Shown here: positions 29,423 to 56,204 of the stretch, in pieces
Numbering within the stretch: the first letter of the stretch is position 1
How the letters are laid out: each line of letters opens with the position of its first letter
Source: Bacteroidaceae bacterium
GTDB taxonomy: Bacteria > Bacillota_I > Bacilli_A > RFN20 > CAG-826
DNA: 56,385 nucleotides
Assembly: GCA_963657885.1 (NCBI GenBank)
Contig: CAVKNZ010000005.1
Coordinates: 1 to 56,385, forward strand
Reading direction: 5' to 3'
Notes under the pieces: model-generated
Databases searched by the model: none
The model's input: the letters and a program-made list of their open reading frames with translations, nothing else
Told to the model about the DNA's origin: nothing
Position numbers and translations under genes: made by a program

Positions 29423-29920
29423 TTATCGTATTTTCTTCCATGCTTTATAGATTTCTTTTTCTATCTCATTTCCGTATTTTCTAACGAGTTCATCGTTAGT
29501 GATTCCAAAAGGAATATTTTTAATACCTCCGTATCTTCTAATGACTAAAGAACGCAAATCATAAACAAATGACTGTTCGTAAAACCAGGCCTCGTTTTTT
29601 AATACAGTTTTGTCAGCTTTATCTAGAAAATCAATTATTCGCTTTTCAATTGTTGGAACCGATTCAAATTCATTATATATGTCGTAATGAATATTAGAGG
29701 TATAATAGCCCCACTCCGGACTTTCAAGGCCATACTTAAAACGGCTAAAGCTTGTAAATAATTCATCAGATATTGTTTTATATTCTTGAGCCTTTTTAAT
29801 CTTTAAAAGATATCCATAGTAATTATCAGTAAACGGATTAAGGTTACCGTTACTTCTATAATATTTTATATCTTTATCGAACCATTTCATTTCTGAAAAT
29901 GAAGTAAATTTGCTGTCCAT
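29423..29920 (-). CDS. Hypothetical protein (last gene of the island's left arm)
   Basis: 165-aa ORF whose ATG lies 2 nt after the upstream gene's stop. No motif recognised. Confidence 0.6.
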   Translation of the reverse strand: MDSKFTSFSEMKWFDKDIKYYRSNGNLNPFTDNYYGYLLKIKKAQEYKTISDELFTSFSRFKYGLESPEWGYYTSNIHYDIYNEFESVPTIEKRIIDFLDKADKTVLKNEAWFYEQSFVYDLRSLVIRRYGGIKNIPFGITNDELVRKYGNEIEKEIYKAWKKIR

Positions 29921-29921
29921 T

Positions 29922-31160
29922 TTATTTTTCTCTTTCTAGCAACGCTTTTAATTGTATTTTATTTATAGATTGATGTTTGATTAAATAATCGCTTATTAGT
30001 TTTATTTCTCGTTTATGAGACTTAAGTTGACGCTTAACAAAGCGGAAATTTTTCTTGATAATTTTTGCTATTCTTTTATCTAAACTGTTACTTAAATATG
30101 GTGAAATAGCACTTCTATCATAGATGAGTTTACTCGAGACATAATAATCGATTTTATCAATATTGTTCTCTAGTAATCTCCACGCGGAACGGTGAGCGAT
30201 TTTTATATCGTCTTCACAGCCTAGTTTATGTCTCTTACATATAATCTCTTCCGCGGCAATGCCAGAAAGAGAAAAACGTAGAAGATTAAATAGACTATCT
30301 CTAGTTTCAACATCTAATAAATCTCTATAAACAGTTTTTCCTCCATTTTGACGGAAGTAACTATGTAAAAATTCTTGGCTTTTAGAAAAGAGATATAAAT
30401 ACATTACGTGTCCTGCTTCATGAATGGCGGTTTCCTTATTAACTTTAAAGTTTCTATTTTTGTAAAGAAGACCTGTTTCAAGAAAATCAACCGCGTTAAC
30501 AATATCGTTAACCACAAACTTGTCGCCATTTCTAAACGTAACAATTTCAATAGCCCTTTTAATCTCGCTTAAAGGATGATGAAGCAAATCATCACTTAGT
30601 TCATAGATGTCATCATCGTTTAGTTGAAGGCCATAAGAGGATAGAAATCCTTTAATAGCCTCTTCTAAATCAGCTCTATCGTTATTGGCTAATTTAAATT
30701 TATAATCAAAGACACCATCTTTTAAAAGTGCATCTGGCAAGTCGCTTAATTGATTAATAGTTGCAAGCGTTAAAACATTCTCATTAAAAATATCTTTAGA
30801 TAACCCTGAATAAATTTTTTGAGTCAATCTATCATCTTTCTTTAAAAGACGATCAATTTCATCGATAATGACAATTGCATTTCCACACTTCCTAGAAGAC
30901 TTATAAATATCAATCATTTCTTTAACAGGTTCTTTGCTGTCGGCCTCTAAAACAAAAATCTGATAATTAAATGATTTCGCGTATTCATTCATCAATAGAG
31001 TTTTCCCGTTTCCCGAGTCTCCGTAAAAGAGTATTCCTCGAGGAAGAAGTTTCTTTTTATCGCTATGTTGAGACAAATTAAGATATCGATTTCGAATTAA
31101 AAATAATTCTTTCTTTATGTTCGAATGCCCATAGACATTTTTTAAAAAATCACCATTCAT
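29922..31160 (-). CDS. Soluble FtsH-like protein: AAA+ ATPase fused to an M41-type HExxH peptidase, no TM segments
   Basis: Walker A GDSGNGKT, Walker B VIIDEID, sensor-1 region LATIN and zinc motif HEAGHVMY. The Arg-finger region is degenerate (PDALLKDGVFD versus canonical PALLRPGRFD). Confidence 0.75.
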   Translation of the reverse strand: MNGDFLKNVYGHSNIKKELFLIRNRYLNLSQHSDKKKLLPRGILFYGDSGNGKTLLMNEYAKSFNYQIFVLEADSKEPVKEMIDIYKSSRKCGNAIVIIDEIDRLLKKDDRLTQKIYSGLSKDIFNENVLTLATINQLSDLPDALLKDGVFDYKFKLANNDRADLEEAIKGFLSSYGLQLNDDDIYELSDDLLHHPLSEIKRAIEIVTFRNGDKFVVNDIVNAVDFLETGLLYKNRNFKVNKETAIHEAGHVMYLYLFSKSQEFLHSYFRQNGGKTVYRDLLDVETRDSLFNLLRFSLSGIAAEEIICKRHKLGCEDDIKIAHRSAWRLLENNIDKIDYYVSSKLIYDRSAISPYLSNSLDKRIAKIIKKNFRFVKRQLKSHKREIKLISDYLIKHQSINKIQLKALLEREK

Positions 31161-31198
31161 TTCAGCCCTCCTTCTATAGGTATATTTTAGTGAAAAGA

Positions 31199-31218
31199 CT
31201 GTCCTAAATTCGGGACAG
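31199..31218. promoter_or_regulatory. Inverted repeat CTGTCC-N8-GGACAG (shared motif with 33615-33634); on the minus strand also a weak terminator-like hairpin followed by CUUUU
   Basis: In reverse orientation it reads ctgtccCGAATTTAggacag, compared with atgtccCGTTTTTAggacat at 33615. Confidence 0.5.
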
Positions 31219-31237
31219 CCGAGCCAAATAATGATGA

Positions 31238-32584
31238 CTATTTAAGCAAAGCCGCTTTTAAAGCTTCTTCGAGTTTTTCTTTCAAGCAAACAGCGAAAAC
31301 GTCGATGCCTAAATTAGCTACTTCATCATACGTCCAAGAATATTCAGCAACTATTTCAGGAACTACAAGGACGGGGTTTATCTTATTTGTTAATTGAGTT
31401 TTCACTTTCTCATAATTTTCTTCACAGATGAGTCCATCACTAAGCATCTTTTTATAAAGTAAAATAGCTTCATTCGGCTGATAAGTTTTAATTAAATCGA
31501 TATGCTTTTTCCAGTAATGAATGTATTCAGTCAAAGAAAGTGGGCAATTGATGTAAGATGCTCCGATATTTCTTCCCCGTTTATAAAGAAGATGAAATGA
31601 CTGATGAAGACTCCTAAGATGATCGGCGTTTAAACGAATATCATCAATCGTTTCTAACATCTTTTTGCCAGAGAATTGGGTGGGTCCAAAAGCGAGAGAA
31701 ATTTTAATTTCATCTCTATCAAATATAAGGTTAAATTCCCTTAAATAAGCATAAGGTAAGTAACACCTAACCACATTCCAACTTCGATTATCAATTTCAC
31801 CATGATAGACTTTGGATAATAAATCTTTTCCAAAGGGAATAATTAAACGTTGCCTAATTTCAATATAAGATGAGCAAGCTAAGACAAAATCATTGACATT
31901 CAAATAGCCTAAAATTGTTAAATATTCAATGAATTGATCAGTGTTATATTCGCCAATTCCTTTAAAAGTATCCGCGATTTGAGAATACTTTTTATATAAA
32001 ACTTCAGGTTTATTATTTAATAGAAGAAGACTTTTCTCAATGTGATTATTTATTTGATTAGGGTCGAGTTTATATAATTTGTTTTCTAAGGCGATAATGT
32101 ATGCAGGCTTATCGTTATCGTAAATCAATATCCAAGCATCAGGTATAGAATCACCTCTTTCGCCTTCTAAATATTCTTTTACCGCTTTTTCGACTTCATT
32201 TTCCAGAATGTCTTTATTAGAAATGGTAATTGATAATTCTTTTTTAATTGCATCATATAATGCTTTCTCATTCTTGGTGTCAAGACCATTAAATCCATAG
32301 CATTCACCACAGGGAGAGAAAGCAAACATAAATCTTCTATTTTTATCAAATGATTCAACTTTTTCTTTATTAGGCTTTCTTTGCAAGAAATATTCAAATG
32401 TAAGCGAATTAGAATTTAATTCAATAGAAAAGATTTGTTTAAAAACTATTATCTTCTTTGCAAGAGGCAAACTATCAATAGAGTTGATAAAAGCTTTTGT
32501 AATATTGTTTTCTAAATATGGCTTGCCATCATATTGCCAATATAAATTAAGATGTGGATCTTTTAATCCTTTATAATCGAGCAT
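31238..32584 (-). CDS. Hypothetical protein with possible PD-(D/E)xK nuclease core
   Basis: SIPDAWILIY…IIALENKLY fits D…ExK spacing. It is tightly coupled (2-nt gap) to the upstream WYL regulator. Confidence 0.35.
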   Translation of the reverse strand: MLDYKGLKDPHLNLYWQYDGKPYLENNITKAFINSIDSLPLAKKIIVFKQIFSIELNSNSLTFEYFLQRKPNKEKVESFDKNRRFMFAFSPCGECYGFNGLDTKNEKALYDAIKKELSITISNKDILENEVEKAVKEYLEGERGDSIPDAWILIYDNDKPAYIIALENKLYKLDPNQINNHIEKSLLLLNNKPEVLYKKYSQIADTFKGIGEYNTDQFIEYLTILGYLNVNDFVLACSSYIEIRQRLIIPFGKDLLSKVYHGEIDNRSWNVVRCYLPYAYLREFNLIFDRDEIKISLAFGPTQFSGKKMLETIDDIRLNADHLRSLHQSFHLLYKRGRNIGASYINCPLSLTEYIHYWKKHIDLIKTYQPNEAILLYKKMLSDGLICEENYEKVKTQLTNKINPVLVVPEIVAEYSWTYDEVANLGIDVFAVCLKEKLEEALKAALLK

Positions 32585-32585
32585 T

Positions 32586-33581
32586 TTAATACCTTTCTAG
32601 AGCCCTCTGAAGCCCATTTTTAATTTTCAAGACAAAGTTATCTGGAGACAATACTGTCACCGAATCGGAATATTGCATCACCCAGTAATACAGCGCATTT
32701 TCATTGCAGCGAATAGAGGCACATAAGTTATCATCTTTTGCATAAATCTTCGCAGATTCTCCAAAGAAGTCTTTGATGAATTGAATTGATTGTTCGTTAT
32801 CAAGCTTTAAGGTCACATCGATAACGTTTCCATCTAACATATAAAGTTGATCATTTAAATACTTAGAGATAGAGAAATTCTTAGGCCCTTCTTTTAAATC
32901 TTCAAGTCGCTTCATATTCCAATCGTGTTTGATTGTAATGTTCTTCATATAGTCAACACGAAATATTTGAAGCGGTCGATATTTCTCTCGATAATTGCAA
33001 AGCAAATAATATCGGCCAAAGTTATTGATGAGGTAATATGGCGAGACGATATATTGATAGCCTCCATTTCTAGCAATTTCATTCCCCTCTTTATCATATG
33101 TCATATATTGAAAACCCACGCGCTTATTTAGCTTCATTGCCTCATGAATAACGCTGATGTTAAAAAGCACTTCTTTATTTGATGTGCGGTTTATTTCCGA
33201 TGATTTATAGATGTAGGAATAATCTTTCCTTTGATATATAGATAAACAACTAGAGATAGAATCCGCGATTCTTTTCGCGTGCCTTCCATCGATACTTCGA
33301 CTAGAAAAAATCGCATCAATTAAAAAAGCGACTTCGCTGCTATCAAAAGTTCTAGACAATAGGGCAAAACCACCTTTAGGACCTTTGGCGATATCATAAT
33401 CGAGCCCTTCTAAAAGCTGCAAAGATGAGCCAATTGATTTTCTTTCTAATTCAATATCGTAAAGTTGATGAATCTTCTCAGCGATTTCTAGCTGCGTTAA
33501 ATAGTGATTATCATCGCTATATTCCTCTAAGACTTTTAAAACTAATAGAATCGAACTCTTTTTATTTGGAATCATGACCAT
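32586..33581 (-). CDS. wHTH + WYL-domain transcriptional regulator (BrxR/CapW-like class)
   Basis: N-terminal HTH (ILLVLKVLEEYSDDNHYLTQLEIAEKI). WYL core YIVSPYYLINNFGRYYLLCNYREKYRPLQIFRVDYM. Confidence 0.8.
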   Translation of the reverse strand: MVMIPNKKSSILLVLKVLEEYSDDNHYLTQLEIAEKIHQLYDIELERKSIGSSLQLLEGLDYDIAKGPKGGFALLSRTFDSSEVAFLIDAIFSSRSIDGRHAKRIADSISSCLSIYQRKDYSYIYKSSEINRTSNKEVLFNISVIHEAMKLNKRVGFQYMTYDKEGNEIARNGGYQYIVSPYYLINNFGRYYLLCNYREKYRPLQIFRVDYMKNITIKHDWNMKRLEDLKEGPKNFSISKYLNDQLYMLDGNVIDVTLKLDNEQSIQFIKDFFGESAKIYAKDDNLCASIRCNENALYYWVMQYSDSVTVLSPDNFVLKIKNGLQRALERY

Positions 33582-34414: not shown

Positions 34415-36352
34415 TTATACGTCAATATTTGTTTTCTTACCGCTGTTTTCTTTTATTTCTTCTATTAGCTTTTTAGCGTCGTAGCCTCTTTCTTCTAAAT
34501 CTATCGCTCCTAAATAAATATCTTCATAGGTTTTGTATTTTGCATTAGCTAATCCTTTAATGAAATCATAGTCATTAATTTGCTTAACCCATTTTTCATT
34601 AACATCAAAGAAGGCTCGATAATAGCGCATAGGATCATCGAGATATATCTTAGCTAAAAGCAACGCCAATCTTGCTCTAGCAACAGTTTGTCCTTTATAA
34701 AACAATTTTTGAACACCTTCTAAAAACGATATGAATTTCTCGCCCTCCCCCGCATCTTTTAATTTTGAAACAATAAGAGGCGATAGATAGTCTTTTCCAC
34801 TTAGCCTAGTTTCACGACAAACTAATAATGCGTCGTCTTCACTTAACTGGGCTTTGATTAAATACTGATATAATTCATCAATTGATGTGATTGCTTTATC
34901 AATATAGCGGCCATTAAGACAGTTCAAATTAGCTTCAATAACGCCTGTGCCGTGAAGTGATGATAAAACTTTTACTAAACCATCAAATGATTTAACATCT
35001 TTGAAACAATTATTCATTGCTTCAAATAATAGTTCACATCCTAAATCTTGTATTCCTATAAAAGGACGATGTTCATATGTCGAATATTTTTTATAGTGCA
35101 TTGAATAGTAGCTTTCTTCCTTTTTGTCTTTAGGAAAGACGAGACATCTAATTACATGACACACAGTTCTAATATCAATATCGTTACTATTTATTTCTTC
35201 TTGGGTTAGACCTAATATGGACGCGAGTTCCATATCAGATGATCTAACATAATGGAGTGACGGATAAATCGGAAACCGCACATTCTCATCAGTTAAATAG
35301 GAAAACTCAACTCCGTTTCTTTTAAAGTCATCTAATAGCAACTCAAAAGGTAAATCGTAACCATCTTCTTTAAGTGAGGCGCCGCAGCAATCGCATTTCT
35401 CAGCAAGCTTCTTTTCACCCCAATGAAAACTGTGACAATTTGGACAATAATGATGCCTTGGCATCGGGTTAGTGCTTCCAATACCAAGTAAATAAAATAG
35501 AAGTGAATTATTTAAAAAGGCTCTCGAGATAAATATCTGCCCTTGGCTCAGTTTAAATGATTGAATATCAAATACTTGTAAAATAACTTTTAGGCCAAAA
35601 TTTTTAGATAGCTCATCCAATTCATAATCAAGTCTTTTTAAGATATAAGGATTAACAATATCGCCATATATTTCTTTTGCCTTTTTTAAAGTAATATCAT
35701 ATAGCGTTCTTCTTCTTTTGGCTTCTGGGTTTATCTTAATAAGTTCCACGTCTTTGTAATGCTTTTCTACAACCGTATTGATCTTTTTAAGAAAAACTTC
35801 CATATCAATAGGATAAAAATTGTGTATCTCATCTCCTATTAAAAGCACAATAATTATAATCTTGCCGTTATAGTTTTTAGTTGTTTTGTTGTCACAGGAA
35901 TTAAGCAATAAAGTCAATTCTTTTCCTTTATAAGAAAAACCGCATTGAGGAGCAATCTTTAAAAATTCATCCTCTTCAAAAAATCTTCTAAAAGCGGAAA
36001 TGACTTTATCTTTATCACCAAGTGAATCTAAAAGGAGTGTTCCAAATTCCTTAGCTTCAATGGCATAAACTTCTGCATTATTTTTAAATATCTCGGCTTT
36101 ATCAAAATCATAATAGATGTTGCTTTCTTTTGATGACTTTAGCTCGCCGGCTAAACAGTGCTTATTAAATTGATAATCTATTGCTTTTTTTATTTTGAAG
36201 CTATCATCGATGTTGTCTTTATCTAGAAAGCTATCGATCACATCAAAGATGTCTTTTGCGAAATCGTTGTCAAAGTGCGAAACATCATCACAATCGATAT
36301 TTATATCTTTGTCGCATTCATTAGTATTCTTGTTCATTTTCTCTACCTCCAA
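34415..36352 (-). CDS. PolC-derived protein: PHP-Zn-finger / palm / fingers-like core with catalytic residues replaced
   Basis: Collinear blocks match PolC as recalled from memory: AKEIYGD; HHYCPNCHSFHW…CDCCGASLKEDGYDLPFELLL (PolC Zn-finger PHYVCPNC…KDGHDIPFETFLG); FIGIQDLGCELLFEAM…LSSLHGTGV (GIPEFGTRFVRQML…LSHGTDV); LFYKGQTVARARLALLLAKIY…YYRAFF (MFPKAHAAAYVLMA…YYASYF). The palm PDIDLNF position reads NGVEFSY. Confidence 0.7.
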   Translation of the reverse strand: MEVEKMNKNTNECDKDINIDCDDVSHFDNDFAKDIFDVIDSFLDKDNIDDSFKIKKAIDYQFNKHCLAGELKSSKESNIYYDFDKAEIFKNNAEVYAIEAKEFGTLLLDSLGDKDKVISAFRRFFEEDEFLKIAPQCGFSYKGKELTLLLNSCDNKTTKNYNGKIIIIVLLIGDEIHNFYPIDMEVFLKKINTVVEKHYKDVELIKINPEAKRRRTLYDITLKKAKEIYGDIVNPYILKRLDYELDELSKNFGLKVILQVFDIQSFKLSQGQIFISRAFLNNSLLFYLLGIGSTNPMPRHHYCPNCHSFHWGEKKLAEKCDCCGASLKEDGYDLPFELLLDDFKRNGVEFSYLTDENVRFPIYPSLHYVRSSDMELASILGLTQEEINSNDIDIRTVCHVIRCLVFPKDKKEESYYSMHYKKYSTYEHRPFIGIQDLGCELLFEAMNNCFKDVKSFDGLVKVLSSLHGTGVIEANLNCLNGRYIDKAITSIDELYQYLIKAQLSEDDALLVCRETRLSGKDYLSPLIVSKLKDAGEGEKFISFLEGVQKLFYKGQTVARARLALLLAKIYLDDPMRYYRAFFDVNEKWVKQINDYDFIKGLANAKYKTYEDIYLGAIDLEERGYDAKKLIEEIKENSGKKTNIDV

Positions 36353-36370
36353 GATGAGTTTAAAGCAAAC

Positions 36371-36401
36371 AAAAAGCGACTATTTAAACCAGTCGCTTTT
36401 T
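36371..36401. terminator. Strong bidirectional intrinsic terminator (11-bp perfect stem AAAAAGCGACT/AGTCGCTTTTT)
   Basis: The loop is atttaaacc. The stem arms carry A- and T-runs, giving a U-tract on either strand. It separates gene 36426-37778 from the PolC-like gene. Confidence 0.75.
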
Positions 36402-36425
36402 GTGTTTGTATGAGTACAAATTAAA

Positions 36426-37778
36426 TTAATGCCTTCTACGATGACTAAAAAATCCGTGTTTCAAAGCTCTTTGGATTTTTTCATCTCCTACATCGCATTG
36501 ATATTTAGTTAACCAAGCAAGAACGCATTGACTAAGTTCTTCATTTACAGATTTTGGTGAAACAACATTTACTATTTCAGCAACATCGGGATTATTCCAT
36601 AGCCATGAGATAAGCGCGTTCTTATTGACTTCGATATTGACGACGCCAAATCTAGGATAAACATTTTTGGGCAACTCTTCGCACTCAATCGCGTATTTAT
36701 CAATTTTGTATGGTCGATCAAGCGCATTTCCACGTTTAACGTTTTCTCTTTCGATTTTAAAATTGTTGCATTTTATAATCGGCATGTTTCTAGAAAAGCA
36801 TTCTTCAAATGATCTTTTGACTCTATCAACATATCGATAGTCGAAAAAGAAAGACGTTTTATACGCAAAGCCTTTTTCAGGCATGATAGATTTTTCAACA
36901 TATTCTTCTAAGGATTTGTATCTACTTGCTAAATGCTTGTTATTCGATTTAAAAAGATTATCCAAATCTCTTTTGACATCGAAATCGGTTATCACAAGAT
37001 CGCTATCAGGCAATTCAGTTGGAATAGAAAGATTTTCAATTGCATCAAAGATGATGCCACTTTTATTTAAAGGTACAAGAATGGCATATGGTTTATTATT
37101 GTGCTCTTCGATTTTATAAACTCGACAATAAACATTTTCATCAATATTGCCAAAATAGACTTTGCTATAATCGACTTTTTCGTTAACTTTTTGAGCCATG
37201 ACTTCAGGGCTTAATTTTCCGAAATGAGTTTGAACAATTAAGACGCATTTTCCTTCTTTATAGGCTTTATTGACCACTCGCATCTTTTTATTGATCGAGG
37301 TTTTATATTTTTTAACGCGTTTATTTTCTTTTTCTAATTCATTTTTATAAAAATCACGATTATGTTTATTGCATAAAGAATCTAATAACTTATTGATAAG
37401 AAATTCGCTATCTTCATCTTTAGTGTATTTATCATTTTTAACCGCGGCTAAAATTTTAATGATTTGCTCTTCATTAAGATGGTTCTTTTCCTCGATATAA
37501 AACTTGCCAGAATCGGTTTGTTTGATAACGAAAGGAATCTTATCAGTGTTTTCAAACTTATAACAAATACTTTGAAGGAATTGCAAACATTCGCCGATTC
37601 TTTGCCTTCTAACATCGTTTCCAGAAGTGGCTTTCGGATCATATTTAAGCCCAAAATTTGTCGCGTGTCGGCAAATATCTTGTTGAGTCGCCGGGTGATC
37701 GATGTCAGTATAATTTAGCAAATAATCTAATGTTAAAAGCAATTCGATTTGATGGATTGTAGTATCGCTTCTTTTCAT
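36426..37778 (-). CDS. wHTH-domain protein, paralog B (of 38373-39701)
   Basis: N-termini align: RSDTTIHQIELLLTLDYLLNYTDIDHPATQQDICRH…RRQRIGECLQFLQ versus RSEAQIHSTELLLTLDCLLHESDEDNPIKAVDICRY…KRQRISACLRFLD. Both share AAVKNDKYTKDED / AAIKNDRYTKDED. Confidence 0.6.
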   Translation of the reverse strand: MKRSDTTIHQIELLLTLDYLLNYTDIDHPATQQDICRHATNFGLKYDPKATSGNDVRRQRIGECLQFLQSICYKFENTDKIPFVIKQTDSGKFYIEEKNHLNEEQIIKILAAVKNDKYTKDEDSEFLINKLLDSLCNKHNRDFYKNELEKENKRVKKYKTSINKKMRVVNKAYKEGKCVLIVQTHFGKLSPEVMAQKVNEKVDYSKVYFGNIDENVYCRVYKIEEHNNKPYAILVPLNKSGIIFDAIENLSIPTELPDSDLVITDFDVKRDLDNLFKSNNKHLASRYKSLEEYVEKSIMPEKGFAYKTSFFFDYRYVDRVKRSFEECFSRNMPIIKCNNFKIERENVKRGNALDRPYKIDKYAIECEELPKNVYPRFGVVNIEVNKNALISWLWNNPDVAEIVNVVSPKSVNEELSQCVLAWLTKYQCDVGDEKIQRALKHGFFSHRRRH

Positions 37779-37871: not shown

Positions 37872-38309
37872 TCAGTCTGTTGTTTTGATCATGCAAACAA
37901 ATTCAAGATTATCTAATTTTTTAAATCCTAATTGACATCTAGAATCAACAACATATCTATCGCATAGTAACAATATATGCGATCTCATATTATCGTTAAG
38001 AAGATGATAATTATCGGCGACGATAACTAAATTTGGTTTTGAAGCCATCGCATCAATTGTTTCTTTGTCAAAAAGTTGACCTTCTAAAGTAAGATCTTTA
38101 AATTGAAGCTTCCTACCTTTGCAATCATTAAGAAGTGCGCAGTCAATGTAAAAGCTATTAATCTTATCTTCGTTATGTCTTAGCCAAGAATTAACAATCG
38201 CTGTTTTTCCAACTCCTGTTGCGCCGTAAAAGGTTACATTAGATTTATTCTTTAAAGAATAATCGAGTTCTCTAGTAATTTTGCTTTCCGAGTAAAAGTA
38301 ATCATCCAT
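37872..38309 (-). CDS. Small P-loop NTPase (145 aa)
   Basis: Walker A FYGATGVGKTAIV. A hydrophobic strand plus acidic residue LVIVADNYH is a degenerate Walker B. Confidence 0.55.
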   Translation of the reverse strand: MDDYFYSESKITRELDYSLKNKSNVTFYGATGVGKTAIVNSWLRHNEDKINSFYIDCALLNDCKGRKLQFKDLTLEGQLFDKETIDAMASKPNLVIVADNYHLLNDNMRSHILLLCDRYVVDSRCQLGFKKLDNLEFVCMIKTTD

Positions 38310-46982: not shown

Positions 46983-46983
46983 G

Positions 46984-48438: not shown

Positions 48439-48894
48439 TCATTTATAATCCATTTCGTTCTTTCTTAAGCTATAAGTTACTTCTAAAACATCTTTATCAA
48501 ACAAAAGGATCTTCTTCGTCTCTATCGCGTGCTCTTTTGCTCCTTTATATGAGCCAACAAAGATTTCGTCTTTCGCTTTAAAAGAATGCTCTTTCCCTTC
48601 ACTTTCAATTAATACCGTCTTTGTATACGTCAATAAATATGATTCTTCATACTCATCATTTTTAACATCAGGGTTTATCTCAAATGCATTCGTGTTCTCG
48701 ATAAATCTTCCAAGCACTTTATGGCCTTTATTTTCAAAATATTCTTCGCTTAAAAGTTTATGGAGAATTAAATCATTGAAAGCTTCAAAAATATAAGAAC
48801 GATTAAAATTGATTTTCTTACAAATTTCAATTTCATCTACATAACCTCCCATCGCGATGATGCTTTCTTGAAGGCATTGAACGGCATAACTCAT
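48439..48894 (-). CDS. Hypothetical protein
   Basis: 151-aa ORF. No motif recognised. Confidence 0.5.
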   Translation of the reverse strand: MSYAVQCLQESIIAMGGYVDEIEICKKINFNRSYIFEAFNDLILHKLLSEEYFENKGHKVLGRFIENTNAFEINPDVKNDEYEESYLLTYTKTVLIESEGKEHSFKAKDEIFVGSYKGAKEHAIETKKILLFDKDVLEVTYSLRKNEMDYK

Positions 48895-48913
48895 ATTTAC
48901 TTCATCCTTTCAT

Positions 48914-49324
48914 TTACCATAAGCTATAGATAGAACAACCAACTGCGTCTTTATAAGTAAAAGTTAATTCATCAATAGGCTTAGTTCTCCAAATCTTATG
49001 AAGTTTTTTCTTAGCCCATCTCCAATAGCTAGATTTAGATTTTGAAAATCTAGTGTAGAAGCTGTGCTTTCTTAAATATTCAGAATCTTCAATAGTTTTA
49101 ACCTGACTCTTTCCAAAGTGGCTCTTCATCGGAGCCATGCAGGAGCCAGAATAATTCCAACATGGTTCGATAAAATCGAAATTTCCCTTATCATCATAAT
49201 AAATGGTGTTGTAATGAGGACAGACCCGATTCCATGACTTTTTAGATAAATTTTTTAATCGTCTTTGGGTTTCATTATGCGCGTTATGAGTTTTTCTACT
49301 ATGATGCATATCTTGCTTCCTCAA
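48914..49324 (-). CDS. Hypothetical basic Cys/Trp-rich protein
   Basis: 136-aa ORF with CPHYN…CWNYSGSC. No family recognised. Confidence 0.5.
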   Translation of the reverse strand: MRKQDMHHSRKTHNAHNETQRRLKNLSKKSWNRVCPHYNTIYYDDKGNFDFIEPCWNYSGSCMAPMKSHFGKSQVKTIEDSEYLRKHSFYTRFSKSKSSYWRWAKKKLHKIWRTKPIDELTFTYKDAVGCSIYSLW

Positions 49325-49409: not shown

Positions 49410-50084
49410 TTAAGAGAGCTTTTCAATCGCCTTTCTAACGTGTTTCTTTTCTAAGCCGTTTTGCTCAAAGCTAGTTTGCACAAGATATCTTGTCATTTTT
49501 GTCTCTAGATAATCAAACATCTCATCATCTAATATGACAAACTTCTTTATATCGACACCAATTTCTTTTTGCATCTCAATATAACGGAGAATGCCTCTTC
49601 CTCGATAGAGGGGATTACCATCGATGGTTTTATCTTTAATTGCTAAGCCTTGCTTTTCTAACTTCGTATCTAGGTAGGCAGCCATTTCATCTTCGTAGTC
49701 TTTAAAGTAAACATTATTTGTCCAATTAGTTTTCCAAGAAGATGTAAGGACAACGATTGCCTTAGTCGCATCAACAATGTCTTTTAGTAAAGCAACTTTC
49801 TTATCTTCAATGCCAATAAAGCCATTGCATCTATCTTTGGTGGAATGTGAATTAAGCACTCCATCGACATCTAAGAAAATAACTTTCTCTTCTTTAATAT
49901 AAAAAGAGTCATCTATGTCTTTAATCACTAATCCTTCGTGATTGATATAACCTTTTTTAACAAGATCATTAAAGATGCCACAAGCTTTTTTAAAGCCAAT
50001 AGATAATTCTCTTTGTAAAGAAGAGATAGAAATCTTCTCTCCCTTTTTAAGAGTTGAAATGATTTGATTTAAATTGTATTCCAT
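49410..50084 (-). CDS. FtsK-gamma-like wHTH fused to a HAD-superfamily phosphatase-like domain
   Basis: KISISSLQRELSIGFKKACGIFNDLVKKGYI matches the FtsK gamma pattern (ISxSxLQRxxxIGYxRAxxIxDxLExxGI). HAD motif I is VIFLDVDGVLN and a later block is FVILDDE. Confidence 0.7.
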   Translation of the reverse strand: MEYNLNQIISTLKKGEKISISSLQRELSIGFKKACGIFNDLVKKGYINHEGLVIKDIDDSFYIKEEKVIFLDVDGVLNSHSTKDRCNGFIGIEDKKVALLKDIVDATKAIVVLTSSWKTNWTNNVYFKDYEDEMAAYLDTKLEKQGLAIKDKTIDGNPLYRGRGILRYIEMQKEIGVDIKKFVILDDEMFDYLETKMTRYLVQTSFEQNGLEKKHVRKAIEKLS

Positions 50085-50095: not shown

Positions 50096-50593
50096 CTACT
50101 TCGCGAGTTCATTGATGAGCCACCTATGATTTTTAATGTAATCTTTTACAGTTTCTTCAATGTCAAAATCTTTAGCCGGTTCTTCCTTCTTAGAAGGCTC
50201 CTTGAAGACTTTATCTGCAATGGCTTTAACTGATATTTGACTACCGCCATCACCGGCGATCTGATATGTTAATTTGCATAATTCTTCATCGCTTATGGCT
50301 AAAGGATTGTTAAGCATTTTACTTGCGAGATATAAAGCGATAACCCCAGTTCTTTTATTGCCATTTAAAAAACCATGATTGATAACTAATGATTTAAAAA
50401 CGCTGGCAAAAGCCTCTTCAATAGAAGGATAAGGCTGATATTGATTGCCTAATGCGGATAGCATTTTATTCTTATCAATAACTCCAAAAGGCTCGCCAAT
50501 TAACAAGGAGAGCTGATTGATTTTAATGATGTCTTCGTAAGTGAGTTCATTATTCATAAAATTAATACCATAAATCGTCAAAATATTTTGCAA
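50096..50593 (-). CDS. doc: Doc/Fic-family toxin (death-on-curing type)
   Basis: Fic/Doc motif HGFLNGNKRTG. The likely start is the internal Met (MNNELTYEDI). Confidence 0.75.
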   Translation of the reverse strand: MQNILTIYGINFMNNELTYEDIIKINQLSLLIGEPFGVIDKNKMLSALGNQYQPYPSIEEAFASVFKSLVINHGFLNGNKRTGVIALYLASKMLNNPLAISDEELCKLTYQIAGDGGSQISVKAIADKVFKEPSKKEEPAKDFDIEETVKDYIKNHRWLINELAK

Positions 50594-51035
50594 ACATCTT
50601 CAATGCTTTTTCTTTATTTAGTTTACAATATTGATCAATTTTTTCCTCTTCGGCTTTATATCTATTTTTATATGAACAAGTGCTTTTATCTGCTTCTAAG
50701 AAAGCGTTTTTCATCTCGACTAAAGTCTTTTGCCATTTCGAAAAACAATATTCATCCATCGCTTTTCTTTGTTCATCATTAATTGTTATAGGACTTAAGT
50801 TATTGTCTTTATAATATTCATTTTCAAAAGAAGAAGGATAACATTTGTTATGCTTAATTAATTCATCAAGCATCTTCGGCATGATTGATAAAAACCATGA
50901 ATCTATTTCATAGACATCATAATCGGAGAAGCCACGCTTCGCGCGTTGTCTTTTCCATTTGATGTTGTTTTTGATTTCTTTTATTTTCATACCTTTTCTT
51001 TCCTCAAAATGGATCGTTATCGCGTTTATAGACAC
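50562..51035 (-). CDS. Hypothetical protein upstream of doc (not Phd-like); likely start is the ATG at 50990
   Basis: The ORF-track start is a GTG. The internal MKIKEIK has a GAGGAAAG SD. Confidence 0.5.
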   Translation of the reverse strand: MSINAITIHFEERKGMKIKEIKNNIKWKRQRAKRGFSDYDVYEIDSWFLSIMPKMLDELIKHNKCYPSSFENEYYKDNNLSPITINDEQRKAMDEYCFSKWQKTLVEMKNAFLEADKSTCSYKNRYKAEEEKIDQYCKLNKEKALKMFAKYFDDLWY

Positions 51036-51266: not shown

Positions 51267-52679
51267 TTAGCCAATGCAGGCTAAGATCTCTGATGATTTA
51301 AGATGTTTTTTCTCAAAAAGCAAATGTCCTAAAGCTTCTACTTTATATCGATTAGCTTTTAAATATTTAATGGTCTCTTTTTCACACTTCTTTAAAAGGT
51401 GTTCAATCTTTCTTTCCATTCTTCTTCTTTTAATAGGTGTTTCCATTCTTGAGCTTTTAGAGACTATAGGAAGCGTTTCAGAGCAAGATGAATAGCCAAT
51501 CATATTAATCATGTTATAGGCTTCCACTCTCGCGTTTTGTAAATCATTTTCTGAGCCTCTTGAGCCTTCACCGCAGATGAGTTTTTGAGCGAGAACTCCG
51601 GCCATCGAGATTTTGATGTCGGCGATGATCTTTTTGTAAGGCCAAAAGCCTTTTTCAACTTCTTTAGCTTGGAAGTTTCCGCTGGCATCAGAGATATTGA
51701 GTCTATTGATTAAGAAGTATTGTGGGAACTCTTTAGCCATAACAGCATGACCGGCTTCATGGATGGCGACATCTAAATTGTATTTATCAACAGTTTTTTT
51801 AACTCTATCGGTGATGTTATAAATAGAATTATCGATCATCTCCATGCTGATATTATTAAAACCATTTCTTAAAACGATGTCGTTTACCAGTGCTTTAACA
51901 CCAGCGCAGGTGATGCCGTTAAGTGATAAAGCGACTTCTTCATCATCAAAATCTTTTGGCAGTTCTAGGTTAAATTCCTTAAAATGCTTCTTTAAAAGTT
52001 CTAATGCTTCTTCACCTTTTGGATATGGAATATGGATGAGTTTTTCTAAACGTCCATGTCTAAGAAGAGGGTTAGGAATTTCATCCAAATCGTTCGTGGC
52101 AGCAAGCACAAGAATGTCATCGCTTGATTCCACTCCATCAAGGCATTCTTGAAGAGCTCTTGAAACTCTGCTCTCGCGAGCGATGAGTAAATCTAATTCA
52201 TCGAAAACGATGATTGCATGTTTTGCTTCTCGAGCTTTCTTAAAAGTTTCAATGATGCCTTTAGTAATATTGCTTTGTTCGCCTTGGAAAACAAATACCG
52301 GTGCGTCCGCGCATCTAATGATTTCTTTAATAAGCAACGATTTTCCGTTTCCTGGTTCTCCAAAGAGAATGACGCCTTTAGGAATGGAGACTCCTTTTTC
52401 TTTAAGTTCTTTTGATCTTTTAAACCAATCCACGACGAGGAGTAGTTCTTTCTTTTGCTCAACATGACCAACGACTCTAGAAAGTGGCTCTTCACCATTT
52501 TTAAGCTTTTCACCATGTTGAAGCGTATACGCGGGCGCGTCCTCTTTATTATTATTTCCGTCAAGATGTTCTTCTTCAAAGGTCTTTGGTCTACTAACCT
52601 TTTTGTTAACGGTGTCCTTTCTTGATAAAATTTCAAAAAATTCTTCATCATCATCTAATACTTCAATTAAATCTTCCAT
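51267..52679 (-). CDS. Soluble FtsH-like AAA+ ATPase / M41 peptidase (second copy), no TM segments
   Basis: Walker A GEPGNGKS, Walker B IIVFDELD, sensor AATND, Arg-finger region PLLRHGRLE, zinc motif HEAGHAVMA and GSENDL (FtsH GASNDI). Confidence 0.8.
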   Translation of the reverse strand: MEDLIEVLDDDEEFFEILSRKDTVNKKVSRPKTFEEEHLDGNNNKEDAPAYTLQHGEKLKNGEEPLSRVVGHVEQKKELLLVVDWFKRSKELKEKGVSIPKGVILFGEPGNGKSLLIKEIIRCADAPVFVFQGEQSNITKGIIETFKKAREAKHAIIVFDELDLLIARESRVSRALQECLDGVESSDDILVLAATNDLDEIPNPLLRHGRLEKLIHIPYPKGEEALELLKKHFKEFNLELPKDFDDEEVALSLNGITCAGVKALVNDIVLRNGFNNISMEMIDNSIYNITDRVKKTVDKYNLDVAIHEAGHAVMAKEFPQYFLINRLNISDASGNFQAKEVEKGFWPYKKIIADIKISMAGVLAQKLICGEGSRGSENDLQNARVEAYNMINMIGYSSCSETLPIVSKSSRMETPIKRRRMERKIEHLLKKCEKETIKYLKANRYKVEALGHLLFEKKHLKSSEILACIG

Positions 52680-52847
52680 TCATTTTTACCTCTTTTCGAG
52701 ATAATTATGACCATTAAATTTTTATTTATCTGATAGAAATTGATTTGGTACTTTTAGAAGGACATATTTATAAGCTGAAGGATTAAAAGATAACCAATAA
52801 AACTAATTTCAATAAAAAATCTTGTTTTAAGAGTCTTTAATTATTTA

Positions 52848-53753
52848 TTAGCACTTAAGTAATTCAGATAAAAGTTTAGTACGCCCATATAGCTTACCTT
52901 CAAGATAAAAATTCCCAGTACAGATGAGCCAAATCATTTTATCGATTTTATATGGTGTCGCGTCTTTAATTCTACATTGTTCGACTAAATATTTAGCAAA
53001 GTAAAAATAGAATTCAACGCAATCTTGATTGCTTATATCATCAGTATTTTTTTGATTTGTTAGTTCCTTCATAACTTTAATAAGATGGGTATCAGGCTTG
53101 ATAAGCCAATGAACACCAATCTCTTTTAGAAAATCATAAGGAAGCGTGTCGCCGAAACCTTTTATTGACTTAAGGTCTTTAACCACACGATAAGCATCGT
53201 CTAAATTGGCGGTAGATATAGTTTGATTGATTAGACCATTTAAACTTTTAACGTTTTCTTTTTTTGATAAATAATTAACTGCATCAGCTAACCCATGACA
53301 AAATTTCGTCCAATTTGTTTTTATTGCATTATTTCTAACTATTATTAGTTTATCGTCCTTAGATAAATTGTTTAGAGCTGTCCCGTTGTCATCAATATAT
53401 GAATCTTGCATTATTTCTTTATAAAATTCATACCATAGATTGGCACTAGTATTCTTTGGTTCAGTGTACTTGTCAACATCAAAGCCAAATAAAGCTTTGC
53501 TAATAACATTGTAGTTATATTCATCGGGCATGCAGTGAATGGTATTTGCTAGTTGCTTGCTATTATTTAATGAAATAGCAGCCTGTCTAAGAAATTCATT
53601 TGGATTCTTTAACGGCTTTGGTTTTAAATATTTTTTACGATTAGCCCTTTTAATATGCCGTTCTTTAAACATCTCATTCATGATAGATGCAATTTGTTCA
53701 TACCATCTCTTTGCGTATTTCCCATAATTTTGTTTAAATTCATCGTAATTCAT
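52848..53753 (-). CDS. Hypothetical protein with possible HhH-GPD-like (DNA glycosylase fold) segment
   Basis: LKSIKGFGDTLPYDFLKEIGVHWLIKPDTHL resembles the HhH hairpin plus the 'VDTH' block of the Nth/AGOG-type fold. The match is weak. Confidence 0.3.
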   Translation of the reverse strand: MNYDEFKQNYGKYAKRWYEQIASIMNEMFKERHIKRANRKKYLKPKPLKNPNEFLRQAAISLNNSKQLANTIHCMPDEYNYNVISKALFGFDVDKYTEPKNTSANLWYEFYKEIMQDSYIDDNGTALNNLSKDDKLIIVRNNAIKTNWTKFCHGLADAVNYLSKKENVKSLNGLINQTISTANLDDAYRVVKDLKSIKGFGDTLPYDFLKEIGVHWLIKPDTHLIKVMKELTNQKNTDDISNQDCVEFYFYFAKYLVEQCRIKDATPYKIDKMIWLICTGNFYLEGKLYGRTKLLSELLKC

Positions 53754-53822
53754 ATTGCACGCTCCTATACAGTTTTAACTTCGATTAATAATAACTTATT
53801 AAGCAGTTAATAATATGCGCTA

Positions 53823-54671
53823 TTATCCCATTTTCCTACTTCCAATAGTCTTATGGAATTGTTTAATTACTTTCTCAACTTCTGGATCAATCATGAAATA
53901 TAGATATCTATCTTCAAATGGAGATAGTTTATCTTTTTGATAATATGCTTCTGCGATTGAACCCGCCATCGCGGCGATTGTGTCAGTATCTCCTCCAATA
54001 GCCACGCATGTTCTAATCGTATCTTCTAATGAATTTGATATTAAAAAGGCATAGATAGCTTCAGGAACACTTCCTTGGCATGATGAATTAAATTTATAGC
54101 TTTTAACTAATTCATCAAAATCAAGATTAGCTATCTCAGGATAGTAATCTCTAAGCATGACTTCTTTAATTTCTTCTTTGTCTTTTCCGTGTAAAGCTAA
54201 ATAAATGCATAAAGAAACTGCCTCAGCTCCTTTAAGGCCTTCAGGATGATTATGAGTGATCTCTGTCACTGTTTTAGTTAAAAGCTTTAAATGTTCAACT
54301 GAATCGGCGACCCAAGCAACAGGAGAGATGCGCATCGCGCTGCCATTACCAAAAGAATTATATGCCGGAGCAACTTGGTTTTTCTCTTTCGAAGCGATAC
54401 ACCATTGCCTAAATAGATGCCCATATCCTGCATGAGGTTTAGAAAAATATGTTTCAACAAATTCTTTAGCTAAATCTTCTTGAATGCTTTTTAACGATTC
54501 TTTTGAATAGTTGATTGGATAATGTCTCATGAGCACCTTTGCCATGGCAATGGTGAGCATTGAATCATCGGTCATCCTCATCGATGAACGATAGATATCA
54601 AAGTTTTTCCTTTTGCATGATTTAAATTCATATATCGAACCAACCATGTCGCCTATAATTGCACCTAACAT
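53823..54671 (-). CDS. ADP-ribosylglycohydrolase family protein
   Basis: N-terminal MLGAIIGDMVGSIYEF and C-terminal GGDTDTIAAMAGSIAEAYY signature blocks. Confidence 0.85.
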   Translation of the reverse strand: MLGAIIGDMVGSIYEFKSCKRKNFDIYRSSMRMTDDSMLTIAMAKVLMRHYPINYSKESLKSIQEDLAKEFVETYFSKPHAGYGHLFRQWCIASKEKNQVAPAYNSFGNGSAMRISPVAWVADSVEHLKLLTKTVTEITHNHPEGLKGAEAVSLCIYLALHGKDKEEIKEVMLRDYYPEIANLDFDELVKSYKFNSSCQGSVPEAIYAFLISNSLEDTIRTCVAIGGDTDTIAAMAGSIAEAYYQKDKLSPFEDRYLYFMIDPEVEKVIKQFHKTIGSRKMG

Positions 54672-54688
54672 AATCTTTTGTTTCCTTT

Positions 54689-55213
54689 CTAATAATACCA
54701 GTCTGAATGGTCTGTTAATTCAAATTTAATAAATAGCTTATCCATGTTGCTTAAATAATCTAATTCTTTATATTCATCTATTCCTAGAATATGGCTCTTT
54801 TTGCCTTTTGAATATATTTGCCAAATGTTATTTCCATATTTCTTTTTAAATTCCTCTAATGGAGGGTAGATAAAATCATTACCAAATATTTTCTTTAAAA
54901 ATTTATGTTTGCTTGATAGATATACAAACATATCATAAGCCCTTTTATTTCTTTGAAGAGTTTCGCTATCTTGTTTATCTTTTGCTTCCTTACTTTTGGC
55001 AATGTTTTTATCGATCTCTTCTAGGTAAAGGGAAATAAGTTCATTGTCTTCATCATTAACGAATTTAAGGAACCCGTTTTTAAAGGTTAAGGGAGTGCTA
55101 AAAGTTTTCTCTACTCCATTAAAGTTAACAACAACATGCTTTTCATCGATAGATTTAACAATGCCTTTTTCATTGTTTTTATTTATAACTTCTTTATTTA
55201 TAAGTTCATTCAT
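54689..55213 (-). CDS. Hypothetical protein
   Basis: 174-aa ORF overlapping the upstream gene by 8 nt. No motif recognised. Confidence 0.5.
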   Translation of the reverse strand: MNELINKEVINKNNEKGIVKSIDEKHVVVNFNGVEKTFSTPLTFKNGFLKFVNDEDNELISLYLEEIDKNIAKSKEAKDKQDSETLQRNKRAYDMFVYLSSKHKFLKKIFGNDFIYPPLEEFKKKYGNNIWQIYSKGKKSHILGIDEYKELDYLSNMDKLFIKFELTDHSDWYY

Positions 55214-56204
55214 TTACGGTTAATGCCTCCTCTTGTTTTAATGCTAAATCGGTAAATCTTTTATTGCTTTGAATGTGTTTATAGAAAAGCTCAAATAGTT
55301 TTTCAAAACCCTCTACTGATTTTGGAAGGTATTTCCTTAAATAAGACATGCGTGTCATATTTGATGTTACTTCCACGGCAAAGAGATTGGCGAAGAATTC
55401 TTCCACTCCTTTGAGAAGATCACACTCATAATATTCTTTACTATGATAATGTAAATAAAGACCATTAAAATCATATGATGAAGATAAAGCATCTAAAATA
55501 GGTGAATATTTACTGTTAAGAATATTAAAGCATTTTTTGACAATTAACTGGAAATAAGTTTCCACAAAGCCAACGTTATATAATTCCTCTTGAAGAGCTT
55601 TTCTTTTGTTTATAACTTTTTTATCTTTTGAGCGTTCGTCTAAGGAAGACAACTCACGATATTTATCAATGTTATTGATTAAAATATCATAAGCGTCCTT
55701 GTTGATATTTGAATTGATGATGTCTTTATATTCATTCATCACCAATGCATATAATTCTTCTTTCTTGCTATTGAATTCTTCAGTGAAGATTTCATAAAGG
55801 GTTTTATTATCACTTATAGCAACGTTTCTTGTTAACGTTGCATAATAGCCAAAAAAGAAATCCACCGCATGACCTAATTCATGAGGAAGAGTTTCTACAT
55901 CATTAATATCGGTCACGAGGCGATTAACCGCCCTCTTACGGAAATCATCAATCGTGGCAATTCTCTCGTTCTTATTAAAAATTTCTTTATCATAGTCAGG
56001 ACGAAGATAACCTTCTTTATATTCGTGAACAATCTTAAGCGAACTGTTATTGATTAGCTTTAAGATGAAATTCCTATATAAAGGAGAGAAATACTCCGCT
56101 TGTCTTCTTAAATCTTCTTTATGATAAGCAAATGTTCTTTTGCTCTTTTTATATAACGCATGAGCGATTGCTTCTATTTCATTATTGTTATTTACTTCTT
56201 TCAT
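55206..56204 (-). CDS. HExxH zincin-like metallopeptidase-domain protein
   Basis: ETLPHELGHAVDFFFGY. No signal peptide. Confidence 0.45.
   Translation of the reverse strand: MKEVNNNNEIEAIAHALYKKSKRTFAYHKEDLRRQAEYFSPLYRNFILKLINNSSLKIVHEYKEGYLRPDYDKEIFNKNERIATIDDFRKRAVNRLVTDINDVETLPHELGHAVDFFFGYYATLTRNVAISDNKTLYEIFTEEFNSKKEELYALVMNEYKDIINSNINKDAYDILINNIDKYRELSSLDERSKDKKVINKRKALQEELYNVGFVETYFQLIVKKCFNILNSKYSPILDALSSSYDFNGLYLHYHSKEYYECDLLKGVEEFFANLFAVEVTSNMTRMSYLRKYLPKSVEGFEKLFELFYKHIQSNKRFTDLALKQEEALTVNE

Follow-up and report, generated by a model that had tools for sequence, protein, structure and literature searches.

The stretch of DNA analysed here, 56,385 nucleotides of contig CAVKNZ010000005.1 (assembly GCA_963657885.1; hereafter the window), carries from position 29423 to its end an array of about 30 genes, nearly all on the minus strand, in which relatives of the housekeeping proteins MetK, PolC, FtsH and FtsK stand among transcriptional regulators and enzymes typical of biological conflicts. 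We propose that this array is probably a member of a family of mosaic islands that has spread horizontally among gut and rumen Bacillota, and that it forms the cargo arm of an integrative element of phage origin, a defective prophage or something satellite-like, whose conflict modules are regulated through S-adenosylmethionine (SAM) and through WYL-type transcription factors. To judge from their motifs and conservation, the look-alikes of housekeeping proteins belong to accessory families that are old and conserved, most of them catalytically competent, and are not decayed copies or decoys of host proteins. Mobile conflict islands are a known kind of element; what is new here is the SAM-riboswitch wiring, a family of FtsH-like proteins without the pore loop, and the pairing of a WYL-fold regulator with a dead PolC fragment. 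We found no description in the literature of this island, of islands that combine FtsH-like and ADP-ribosylglycohydrolase (ARH) genes, or of SAM riboswitches on prophage MetK genes.

Searches against Pfam, PHROGs and the PDB bore out the initial annotation in placing housekeeping look-alikes, regulators and conflict enzymes together in this region, and its impression of a shared theme reflects more than chance. Neighbour contexts of FtsH2, the second of the array's two FtsH-like genes, were drawn from ENA, Logan, NCBI and JGI, and the neighbours clustered over 31 loci: ARH accompanies FtsH2 in 17 loci, a WYL-fold 450-aa protein in 14, a HAD protein in 11, an FtsK-like gene in nine, and a PolC fragment and a zincin in seven each. 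The order of the families is shuffled among loci, with recurrent strings: zincin, family c6, FtsH2, HAD and ARH; FtsK-like and FtsH2; and MoxR, a 148-aa gene, VWA and MetK. Identity across loci is 65-92% for FtsH2, MoxR, VWA, MetK and ARH. Locus L086 keeps the order of the window at 59-85% identity, and two others, L007 and L126, each have ten families in common with it (in L126, FtsH2 is 71%, the WYL-fold protein 65% and the zincin 58% identical). These loci, more than 30 besides the window and drawn from metagenomes and MAGs, range from 27 to 48% in GC content, and FtsH2 is nonetheless about 75% identical among them. Moreover, a 5-kb mini-island (L087:10001-14788, found also in L088, L089 and L095), which holds FtsH2, a 106-aa gene, ARH, family c8 and an FtsK-like gene between xylose-type sugar genes and a rhamnosidase, has a GC content of 40-45% against 48-55% in its flanks; neither a riboswitch nor a mobility gene was found in it. 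Thus, the island families behave as horizontally spread accessory genes rather than as derivatives made within each host. High cross-host conservation and intact motifs rule out an origin as decayed copies of host genes. The genes belong to neighbourhoods of the conflict type: related loci carry GmrSD, EcoRI- and MjaI-type restriction-modification, AbiEii-like, Schlafen-like, SNF2 helicase and NADAR genes beside the island families.

The initial annotation had described each look-alike as altered at key sites, which holds for the two FtsH-like proteins and the PolC fragment and fails for MetK. The MetK-like protein, about 30% identical to cellular MetK, retains every catalytic motif (GHPD, DQ, PDxK, GGPxGDxGLxGKK and GGGAxxGKDPxKxD), all invariant among three island copies, and appears to be a functional SAM synthetase. 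The FtsK-like protein consists of the RecA-like beta domain alone, with Walker A and B intact and the alpha, gamma and membrane/linker regions absent; an FtsK-type gamma domain is encoded apart from it, as a fusion to HAD. Exact-protein look-ups of the zincin and MetK returned no record, and single-protein scans of IMG/VR and GTDB genomes with either returned nothing. The MoxR ATPase additionally matches the phage CobS-like family phrog_249 (7e-11); with this match and its VWA partner, the MoxR-VWA pair, which shares a SAM-regulated operon with MetK, resembles a CobS/CobT-type pair.

Both FtsH-like proteins, which are 24% identical to each other, keep an AAA+ module with Walker A and B followed by an M41 domain with the HEAGH and ND zinc site. 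Both lack the N-terminal transmembrane anchor and have hydrophilic N-termini, with the AAA module beginning at about residue 40 in FtsH-like 1 and residue 100 in FtsH-like 2. At the aromatic pore-1 loop (MFVG), both show a gap of 5-6 residues exactly there, and this deletion characterises the FtsH2 family as a whole, being conserved in 23 members. Alignment to Aquifex FtsH (4ww0) indicates that FtsH-like 1 has also lost its arginine fingers (LLKDGVFD), which FtsH-like 2 keeps. The FtsH2 family comprises more than 900 clusters below E 1e-10, the best 120 of them 67-85% identical, and neither FtsH-like protein exceeds 25-30% identity to any FtsH of PLSDB or GenBank phages. One related locus (L115) likewise has two FtsH-like genes inside 10 kb (10001-11218 and about 19-20 kb); paired or multiple copies are perhaps a trait of the island family.

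The PolC-derived protein begins with a unique 200-aa N-terminus and continues with the N-terminal half of the palm, including the PolC zinc finger, and part of the fingers, matching PolC at about 800-960 (first palm half, Cys4 zinc finger) and 1150-1310 (fingers). The PD-ID catalytic pair of PolC is replaced by G/T in the fragment family (G/E in the window copy), about 190 aa of palm and thumb are deleted together with the third aspartate, and the PHP and exonuclease domains are gone as well. The PolC-specific zinc finger (CxxC...CxxC) is kept, with C298, C301, C315 and C318 invariant across the family. Such a residue pattern marks the fragment as a presumptive catalytically dead scaffold. Its homologs are rare, forming about 18 clusters at 50% identity among 1.84 billion representatives, and a search of 185,579 GTDB species genomes with the family alignment kept two true members and 78 other loci that are ordinary PolC genes. 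On contigs with homologs of the fragment, a short gene of the FtsK type and an FtsH-like gene occur again, as does the 450-aa protein that the initial annotation counted among three winged helix-turn-helix (wHTH) proteins, and the fragment adjoins this 450-aa gene in 8/8 informative loci. An AlphaFold2 model of the fragment (predicted local distance difference test score, pLDDT, 51) was too poor for a fold search. At L005:4491-5732 a second copy, split into two open reading frames, lies 2.6 kb downstream of an intact one and is possibly a decaying duplicate.

For the 450-aa protein itself (wHTH450, also referred to as WYL450; 36426-37778), an AlphaFold2 model built on 40 homologs reached a pLDDT of 86, and Foldseek matched it to DriD, PafBC, CapW and BrxR across the entire HTH-WYL-WCX architecture (E 4e-6 to 3e-2), with no Pfam WYL match. 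Two of the three supposed wHTH proteins (36426-37778 and 38373-39701) are thus, on the modelled fold, divergent HTH-WYL-WCX regulators, and with the canonical one at 32586-33581 they bring the WYL-type regulators of the island to three. Homologs of wHTH450 are often fused to a C-terminal small P-loop domain (forms of 583-599 aa), which the window encodes as a gene of its own (37872-38309). Known WYL regulators with this fold, namely DriD, PafBC, CapW and BrxR, turn genes on in response to single-stranded DNA (ssDNA) or DNA damage.

A further layer of control lies ahead of the MetK operon, where an 87-nt SAM-I match sits on the minus strand between a promoter-like site (46096-46068) and a terminator hairpin (45957-45935). 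It scores 37.2 bits with Rfam RF00162 (local E 7e-7) and 106 bits with our own covariance model, R1. The RF00162 alignment spans model positions 1-108 and includes P1, P2, P3 and the conserved core nucleotides; the P4 hairpin is absent, with 17-19 model positions deleted in every copy. The terminator hairpin has a T-run, and the 3' strand of P1 (ACGATGGGA) recurs in its 3' arm, which is, by prediction, the usual S-box antiterminator logic; the ligand is presumably SAM. Right after the terminator, a conserved TTCCTCTTTATGG stretch (window 45898-45925, minus strand; equivalent place in L086, L125, L098 and L093) has complementarity to the AAGGAGG ribosome-binding site that follows a few bases later and may bring translation-level control.

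Rfam SAM matches occupy syntenic places in five loci (window, L007, L086, L104 and L125), and L007 has a more divergent copy upstream of its zincin. The covariance model built from these six copies (window, L007 twice, L086, L104, L125) gives 20 matches in 15 loci and the window, the L090 and L091 matches being one place on two contigs of one sample. Among 19 copies, 89% of cells are paired, compared with 32-49% when the partners are slid, and 11 pairs show compensatory change. Class A riboswitches lie upstream of the MoxR-VWA-MetK operon or of a 261-aa gene, and class B upstream of the zincin-c6-FtsH2 operon or of FtsH2 itself; only the class A copy is visible in the window. True phage MetK genes (phi1605, Heliusvirales) yielded no riboswitch with the same model. 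Since SAM riboswitches precede the MetK operon and, in relatives, also the FtsH-like one, the island appears to read the SAM pool, and the link to SAM synthesis that the initial annotation had drawn gains support. For the genes behind class B copies, no connection with the metabolism of methionine or SAM is known. Family c8 (250-270 aa), the most frequent gene directly behind class A copies, is absent from the window and present in the L087 mini-island; it has no Pfam match on record and no PDB sequence match, and a PDB sequence search with the riboswitch-controlled 261-aa and 458-aa proteins found nothing.

The nature of the carrier is suggested by L126. There, after a divergent cI-like/Cro-like pair, the primase-helicase VapE, the small terminase subunit TerS, an SNF2/DEAD helicase and an N6/N4 methylase run in one direction with close spacing into an array of WYL450, PolC fragment, zincin, c6, FtsH2, HAD and ARH. 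The backbone genes match PHROG families (VapE phrog_256, 3e-276; TerS phrog_83, 4e-29; SNF2 phrog_16; methyltransferase phrog_67), and VapE is closest, at 49% identity, to that of Erysipelothrix phage phi1605, whose gene order is primase, SNF2, HNH, MetK, methylase, large terminase, portal and capsid. Given this backbone and the phi1605 order, the array resembles an expanded MetK/methylase slot of a phi1605-type phage lineage, and a phage-derived carrier is what we infer. In the window, L090 and L104 the array runs into host genes, and packaging and structural genes are absent there; within 29.4-56.4 kb, Pfam and PHROGs match no capsid, large terminase, portal, tail, type IV secretion/conjugation, integrase or Rep gene, in line with the initial annotation. 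The lysogeny switch, the phage-type replication genes and a set like that of phage-inducible chromosomal islands (PICIs) occur only in L126, upstream of the homologous array, with none visible in the window. The initial annotation had offered as its alternative a degraded integrative plasmid or a unit like the potential mobile units (PMUs) of phytoplasmas; the degraded integrative element comes nearer the evidence, through the phage-type module of L126, and the PMU comparison is not supported, the window having yielded no tra5, dnaB, dnaG, ssb or himA. Identity as a PMU or as an integrative and conjugative element was rejected, no hallmark gene having been found.

We propose that the cargo works as four modules, transcribed separately. 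In module 1, a promoter, the P4-less SAM-I riboswitch and the terminator precede the 177-aa gene, MoxR, the 148-aa gene, the zincin/VWA gene, MetK and the FtsK-like ATPase; the operon would be read through only at low SAM, the MetK-like enzyme would refill the pool, and the refilled SAM would sustain SAM-dependent methylation by the element or its host. Module 2 (zincin, c6, ARH, the 301-aa gene, FtsH-like 2, c11, Doc and the gamma-HAD fusion) would remove or repair, through its protease, ARH, HAD and Doc proteins, the protein and nucleic-acid modifications typical of conflicts, and in relatives would be coupled to the same SAM signal by a riboswitch. In module 3, every WYL-fold regulator precedes a target gene, and ssDNA or DNA damage would lead these regulators to relieve the repression of their neighbours; foremost among the targets is the PolC fragment, which might then act on the replisome as an adaptor or blocker. 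Module 4 holds a WYL regulator, the 448-aa gene and FtsH-like 1. The conflict role that we infer for this cargo could take either of two directions, defence of the host from other elements or help for the carrier in beating host defences.

Several observations weigh against parts of this proposal. The phage-type backbone stands beside the array in one contig (L126) and in no other locus, and it could be a separate small element integrated next to the island. We found no integrase or att site at the four visible island ends (window, L087, L090, L104), and a search of the island and of the surroundings of the L087 mini-island for att-like repeats, direct or inverted, gave chance-level matches only. 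Alignments of FtsH2, WYL450, MoxR and MetK had no match in the IMG/VR contigs scanned, and GenBank phages contained no close relative of any of the four; PLSDB likewise had none for FtsH2, MetK or the island DNA, and megablast of 25 kb of island DNA against GenBank phages and PLSDB returned nothing. As to the riboswitch, its RF00162 scores (37.2 bits in the window, 39.5-42.8 in relatives) fall below the gathering threshold of 44.4 bits, so that an ordinary annotation run would miss it, and none was found in the 181 nt between the window zincin and the window end (181-286 nt of visible upstream sequence were searched). PADLOC (PADLOC-DB v2), a check that the initial annotation had suggested and that we ran on all island proteins, recognised no defence system; its isolated matches were to WYL, weakly to mad8/SspH for the FtsK-like ATPase, and weakly to IetA for the AAA module of FtsH2. 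The single-locus backbone, the missing integrase and att, and the absence from the IMG/VR contigs would all be compatible with a satellite-like or defective element.

Much of this evidence could also be read as a non-mobile variable region of the chromosome, a 'defence island' whose modules were gathered by hotspot recombination, with the L126 phage-type genes an unrelated neighbour. The bare island ends, the location of the families on contigs of 0.1-1 Mb, their absence from the viral collections searched (and that of FtsH2 and MetK from the plasmid collection) and the confinement of the backbone to L126 would all suit such a region. We nevertheless think it an unlikely account, since L126 runs unidirectionally with short gaps from cro through VapE, TerS, SNF2 and methylase into the array, several island families have PHROG relatives, and phages with the closest VapE hold MetK and a methylase in the same slot. 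The guard/decoy arrangement put forward by the initial annotation, in which inert mimics of host MetK, PolC, FtsH and FtsK soak up or detect phage inhibitors, draws on the dead PolC fragment, which retains only surface and architectural parts of PolC, and on the two FtsH-like proteins, neither of which has the substrate-threading pore-1 loop and one of which (FtsH-like 1) also lacks arginine fingers. MetK, FtsH-like 2 and the FtsK-like ATPase, however, retain their catalytic motifs. Moreover, at only about 25-35% identity to their cellular counterparts the look-alikes would be poor mimics of host-specific inhibitor surfaces, and at 65-92% identity across hosts of 27-48% GC they do not track any single host's proteins; we therefore hold this mechanism to be very improbable.

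A different role for the same switches is that of an alarm for SAM depletion. Phage SAM lyases would destroy SAM and block host MetK, disarming restriction-modification and BREX; the P4-less riboswitches would sense the drop and turn on a divergent MetK, insensitive to the inhibitor, along with effectors of the protease, ARH, HAD and Doc types, which would restore or enforce immunity. Such a dual attack has a precedent in the T3 SAMase, which couples SAM cleavage with inhibition of SAM synthesis (bioRxiv 10.1101/2023.02.27.530186). Consistent with an alarm, riboswitches precede the MetK operon and, in relatives, a zincin-FtsH-like-HAD-ARH operon without a methionine link; the island MetK is divergent and yet has its catalytic motifs intact; true phage MetK genes lack a riboswitch; and restriction-modification and other defence genes are neighbours in relatives. 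S-box control of metK paralogs is, however, the default in Bacillota, and an immune explanation is not needed for it. We know of no SAM lyase in phages of these uncultured hosts; moreover, PADLOC matches no system, and the window's own FtsH-like operon has no visible switch. On balance, we regard the alarm as unlikely. Its fullest form, a riboswitch-triggered immune or backup system, is likewise doubtful: P4-less SAM-I switches would sense SAM depletion, for example by phage SAM lyases, and induce the inhibitor-insensitive MetK, the soluble FtsH-like protease without a pore loop, ARH, HAD and Doc, and WYL ssDNA sensors would release the dead PolC fragment to block or re-route the PolC replisome.

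These results define an extensive, hitherto unannotated family of islands in uncultured Bacillota of the gut and rumen, with a signature protease that alone forms more than 900 protein clusters, and indicate that the 'housekeeping look-alikes' of islands can be conserved accessory enzymes and not pseudogene-like debris. They also provide new, testable objects: a soluble FtsH-like protease without the pore-1 loop, the pair of WYL regulator and dead PolC fragment, and a P4-less SAM-I riboswitch that governs operons beyond methionine metabolism. If SAM sensing does detect attack on the methyl-donor pool, it would tie riboswitch biology to immunity against mobile elements; and were riboswitch-triggered immunity true, a metabolite riboswitch would for the first time be seen to serve as infection sensor, and a replicative-polymerase fragment as conflict effector.

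The window (Table 1) has a GC content of about 31% and no tRNA genes. Bases 1-29137 are ordinary chromosome, with a GH36 melibiase, an aldose epimerase, GalK, GalT, GH43 enzymes and a sugar ABC transporter; dispersed between the sugar genes of 1-23390 are a HipA toxin with its coupling domain, a Schlafen AlbA_2/HATPase_c_4 protein, an AAA_14/DUF4143 ATPase and a PRiA4_ORF3-like protein. The left border of the array lies at a GH43 gene, with an identical junction in a second sample (Logan SRR13434591); the right border lies past the window end, and 56205-56385 are non-coding. A PD-(D/E)xK-like call that the initial annotation had made for 31238-32584 could not be confirmed, SHOCT_2 being the sole match found. 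The second plus-strand gene within 46323-48384 weakly resembles the LRR_5-methylase protein of L086 over a short stretch.

Table 1. Features of the array in the window, and members of two feature classes in related loci (coordinates of the respective locus).
Feature	Position	Strand	Evidence or occurrence
165-aa protein, terminal gene of array beside host GH43	29423-29920	-	no Pfam, PHROG or PADLOC match
FtsH-like 1, soluble AAA+/M41, 412 aa	29922-31160	-	Pfam AAA 2.7e-12, Peptidase_M41 1.7e-10
448-aa protein with SHOCT_2 segment	31238-32584	-	Pfam
Canonical HTH-WYL-WCX regulator	32586-33581	-	Pfam WYL 3.9e-8 and WCX; PADLOC WYL 1.6e-23
211-aa protein, family also in related islands L086, L093	33691-34326	-	locus comparison
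PolC-derived fragment	34415-36352	-	PDB PolC 3f2b, E 8.5e-19 across two stretches
14-bp terminator-like hairpin, separates WYL-fold gene from PolC-fragment gene	36369-36403	-	
Putative divergent HTH-WYL-WCX regulator (wHTH450)	36426-37778	-	AlphaFold2 and Foldseek
145-aa P-loop domain protein	37872-38309	-	
Second wHTH450 paralog, 33% identity to first	38373-39701	-	
152-aa protein	39807-40265	-	
Minimal FtsK/HerA-type ATPase, 245 aa	40189-40926	-	FtsK/SpoIIIE core 5.7e-18
MetK-like putative SAM synthetase	41023-42135	-	all three MetK domains (Pfam); PDB MetK 2e-30
HExxH metallopeptidase-like domain and VWA protein	42122-43522	-	Pfam; phrog_1314; 73% identity in L086
148-aa conserved partner gene between MoxR and VWA	43519-43965	-	
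MoxR-type AAA_5 ATPase	43944-45392	-	76-92% identity in relatives
177-aa protein, opens riboswitch-controlled operon	45361-45894	-	
Riboswitch terminator hairpin	45935-45957	-	
SAM-I (S-box) riboswitch aptamer without P4	45970-46066	-	Rfam RF00162; own covariance model R1
Promoter-like site TTGAAA-17-TATAAT, best of region	46068-46096	-	
Two genes (219 and 466 aa) breaking up the minus-strand array	46323-48384	+	no family match
Two small conserved genes (151 and 136 aa)	48439-49324	-	found again in L086, L125, L126
FtsK-gamma winged helix fused to HAD_SAK_2 phosphatase, DVDG motif retained	49410-50084	-	
Doc/Fic toxin-like protein, HGFLNGNKR motif	50096-50593	-	
157-aa conserved protein, family c11	50562-51035	-	
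FtsH-like 2 (FtsH2), soluble; signature gene of island family	51267-52679	-	Pfam AAA 1.5e-21, M41 1.4e-15
301-aa protein	52848-53753	-	
ARH	53823-54671	-	Pfam 2e-39; present in 17/31 loci
174-aa conserved zincin partner, family c6	54689-55213	-	
332-aa zincin-like protein, HExxH = HELGH; starts zincin-c6-...-FtsH-like string	55206-56204	-	
Class B riboswitch copies	L007:1670-1769, L126:13173-13271, L105:848-946, L100:9111-9211, L098:6545-6645, L090:9693-9798		
Family c8 members	L098:11686-12489, L100:12097-12915, L097:4952-5737, L093:12828-13586		

Related islands hold further genes of note. At L094:14891-19879, a 1662-aa protein consists of a reverse transcriptase (RVT_1) fused to 11 BspA-type LRR_5 repeats. 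Directly upstream of FtsH2 on a 111-kb contig, L086:3777-9529 encodes the anaerobic ribonucleotide reductase NrdD and NrdG, a metallophosphoesterase, a deoxynucleoside/thymidylate kinase and an 818-aa LRR_5-DNA methylase fusion.

Among known regulatory RNAs, the island element shares with SAM-I/S-box RF00162 the P1-P2-P3 core, the terminator/antiterminator platform and the place upstream of a metK homolog; it differs in its deleted P4, in scores of 37-43 bits under the 44.4-bit gathering value, and in standing, in relatives, also before protease, ARH and HAD operons and the 261-aa gene, outside the usual Met/Cys/SAM regulon. The FtsH-like proteins have in common with cellular FtsH, and with the paralogs of jumbo phages and E. 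coli plasmids, the succession of AAA+ and M41, the HExxH and the Asp ligand motif; unlike these, they lack the transmembrane/periplasmic N-terminus, have the pore-1 loop deleted and are only 25-30% identical. Like DriD, PafBC, CapW and BrxR, wHTH450 has the HTH-WYL-WCX fold, and like brxR and capW its gene lies directly upstream of the presumed target in the same direction. It is, however, about 450 aa long and not about 300, has no Pfam WYL match and is frequently fused to a P-loop domain, and its presumed target is a PolC-derived protein, whereas the known WYL regulators act on BREX, CBASS or DNA-repair genes. Catalytically dead polymerase homologs of the ImuB type serve as adaptors, and the PolC fragment is, by analogy only, a similar case of a non-catalytic polymerase-derived protein under a regulator class that answers DNA damage or ssDNA; it differs in deriving from C-family PolC and not from a Y-family polymerase, and in having no partner polymerase gene nearby.

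As for carriers, phi1605, Streptococcus Javan phages and Ca. Heliusvirales are temperate phages of Bacillota in which a module of VapE primase, SNF2 helicase, MetK and DNA methylase stands before the terminase; their MetK-like gene lies beside a methylase, between replication and packaging genes. The window MetK matches the family of those phages, phrog_1569, at 5e-46, yet is 27-32% identical to the phage copies; host GH43 genes take the place of downstream terminase, portal, capsid and tail genes, the MetK operon has a riboswitch that the phage copies lack, and the FtsH-like, PolC-fragment, WYL450 and MoxR families are not in GenBank phages or the IMG/VR contigs scanned. PMUs of phytoplasmas carry extra hflB/ftsH copies, and the island recalls them in that a low-GC member of the Bacillota/Mollicutes radiation carries several additional FtsH-like genes and that, in L086, a thymidylate/deoxynucleoside kinase and a methylase lie near FtsH2; the window differs in having no match to tra5, dnaB, dnaG, ssb, himA or sigF (Pfam, PHROGs) and no flanking inverted repeats. 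PICIs, whose typical whole-island size is 10-15 kb, are exceeded by the window array, where the cargo alone takes up at least 27 kb and integrase and att are not seen. L126 resembles PICIs and other phage satellites in its divergent cI/Cro-type regulators, its primase-helicase, its small terminase, the lack of structural genes nearby, and its distal cargo.

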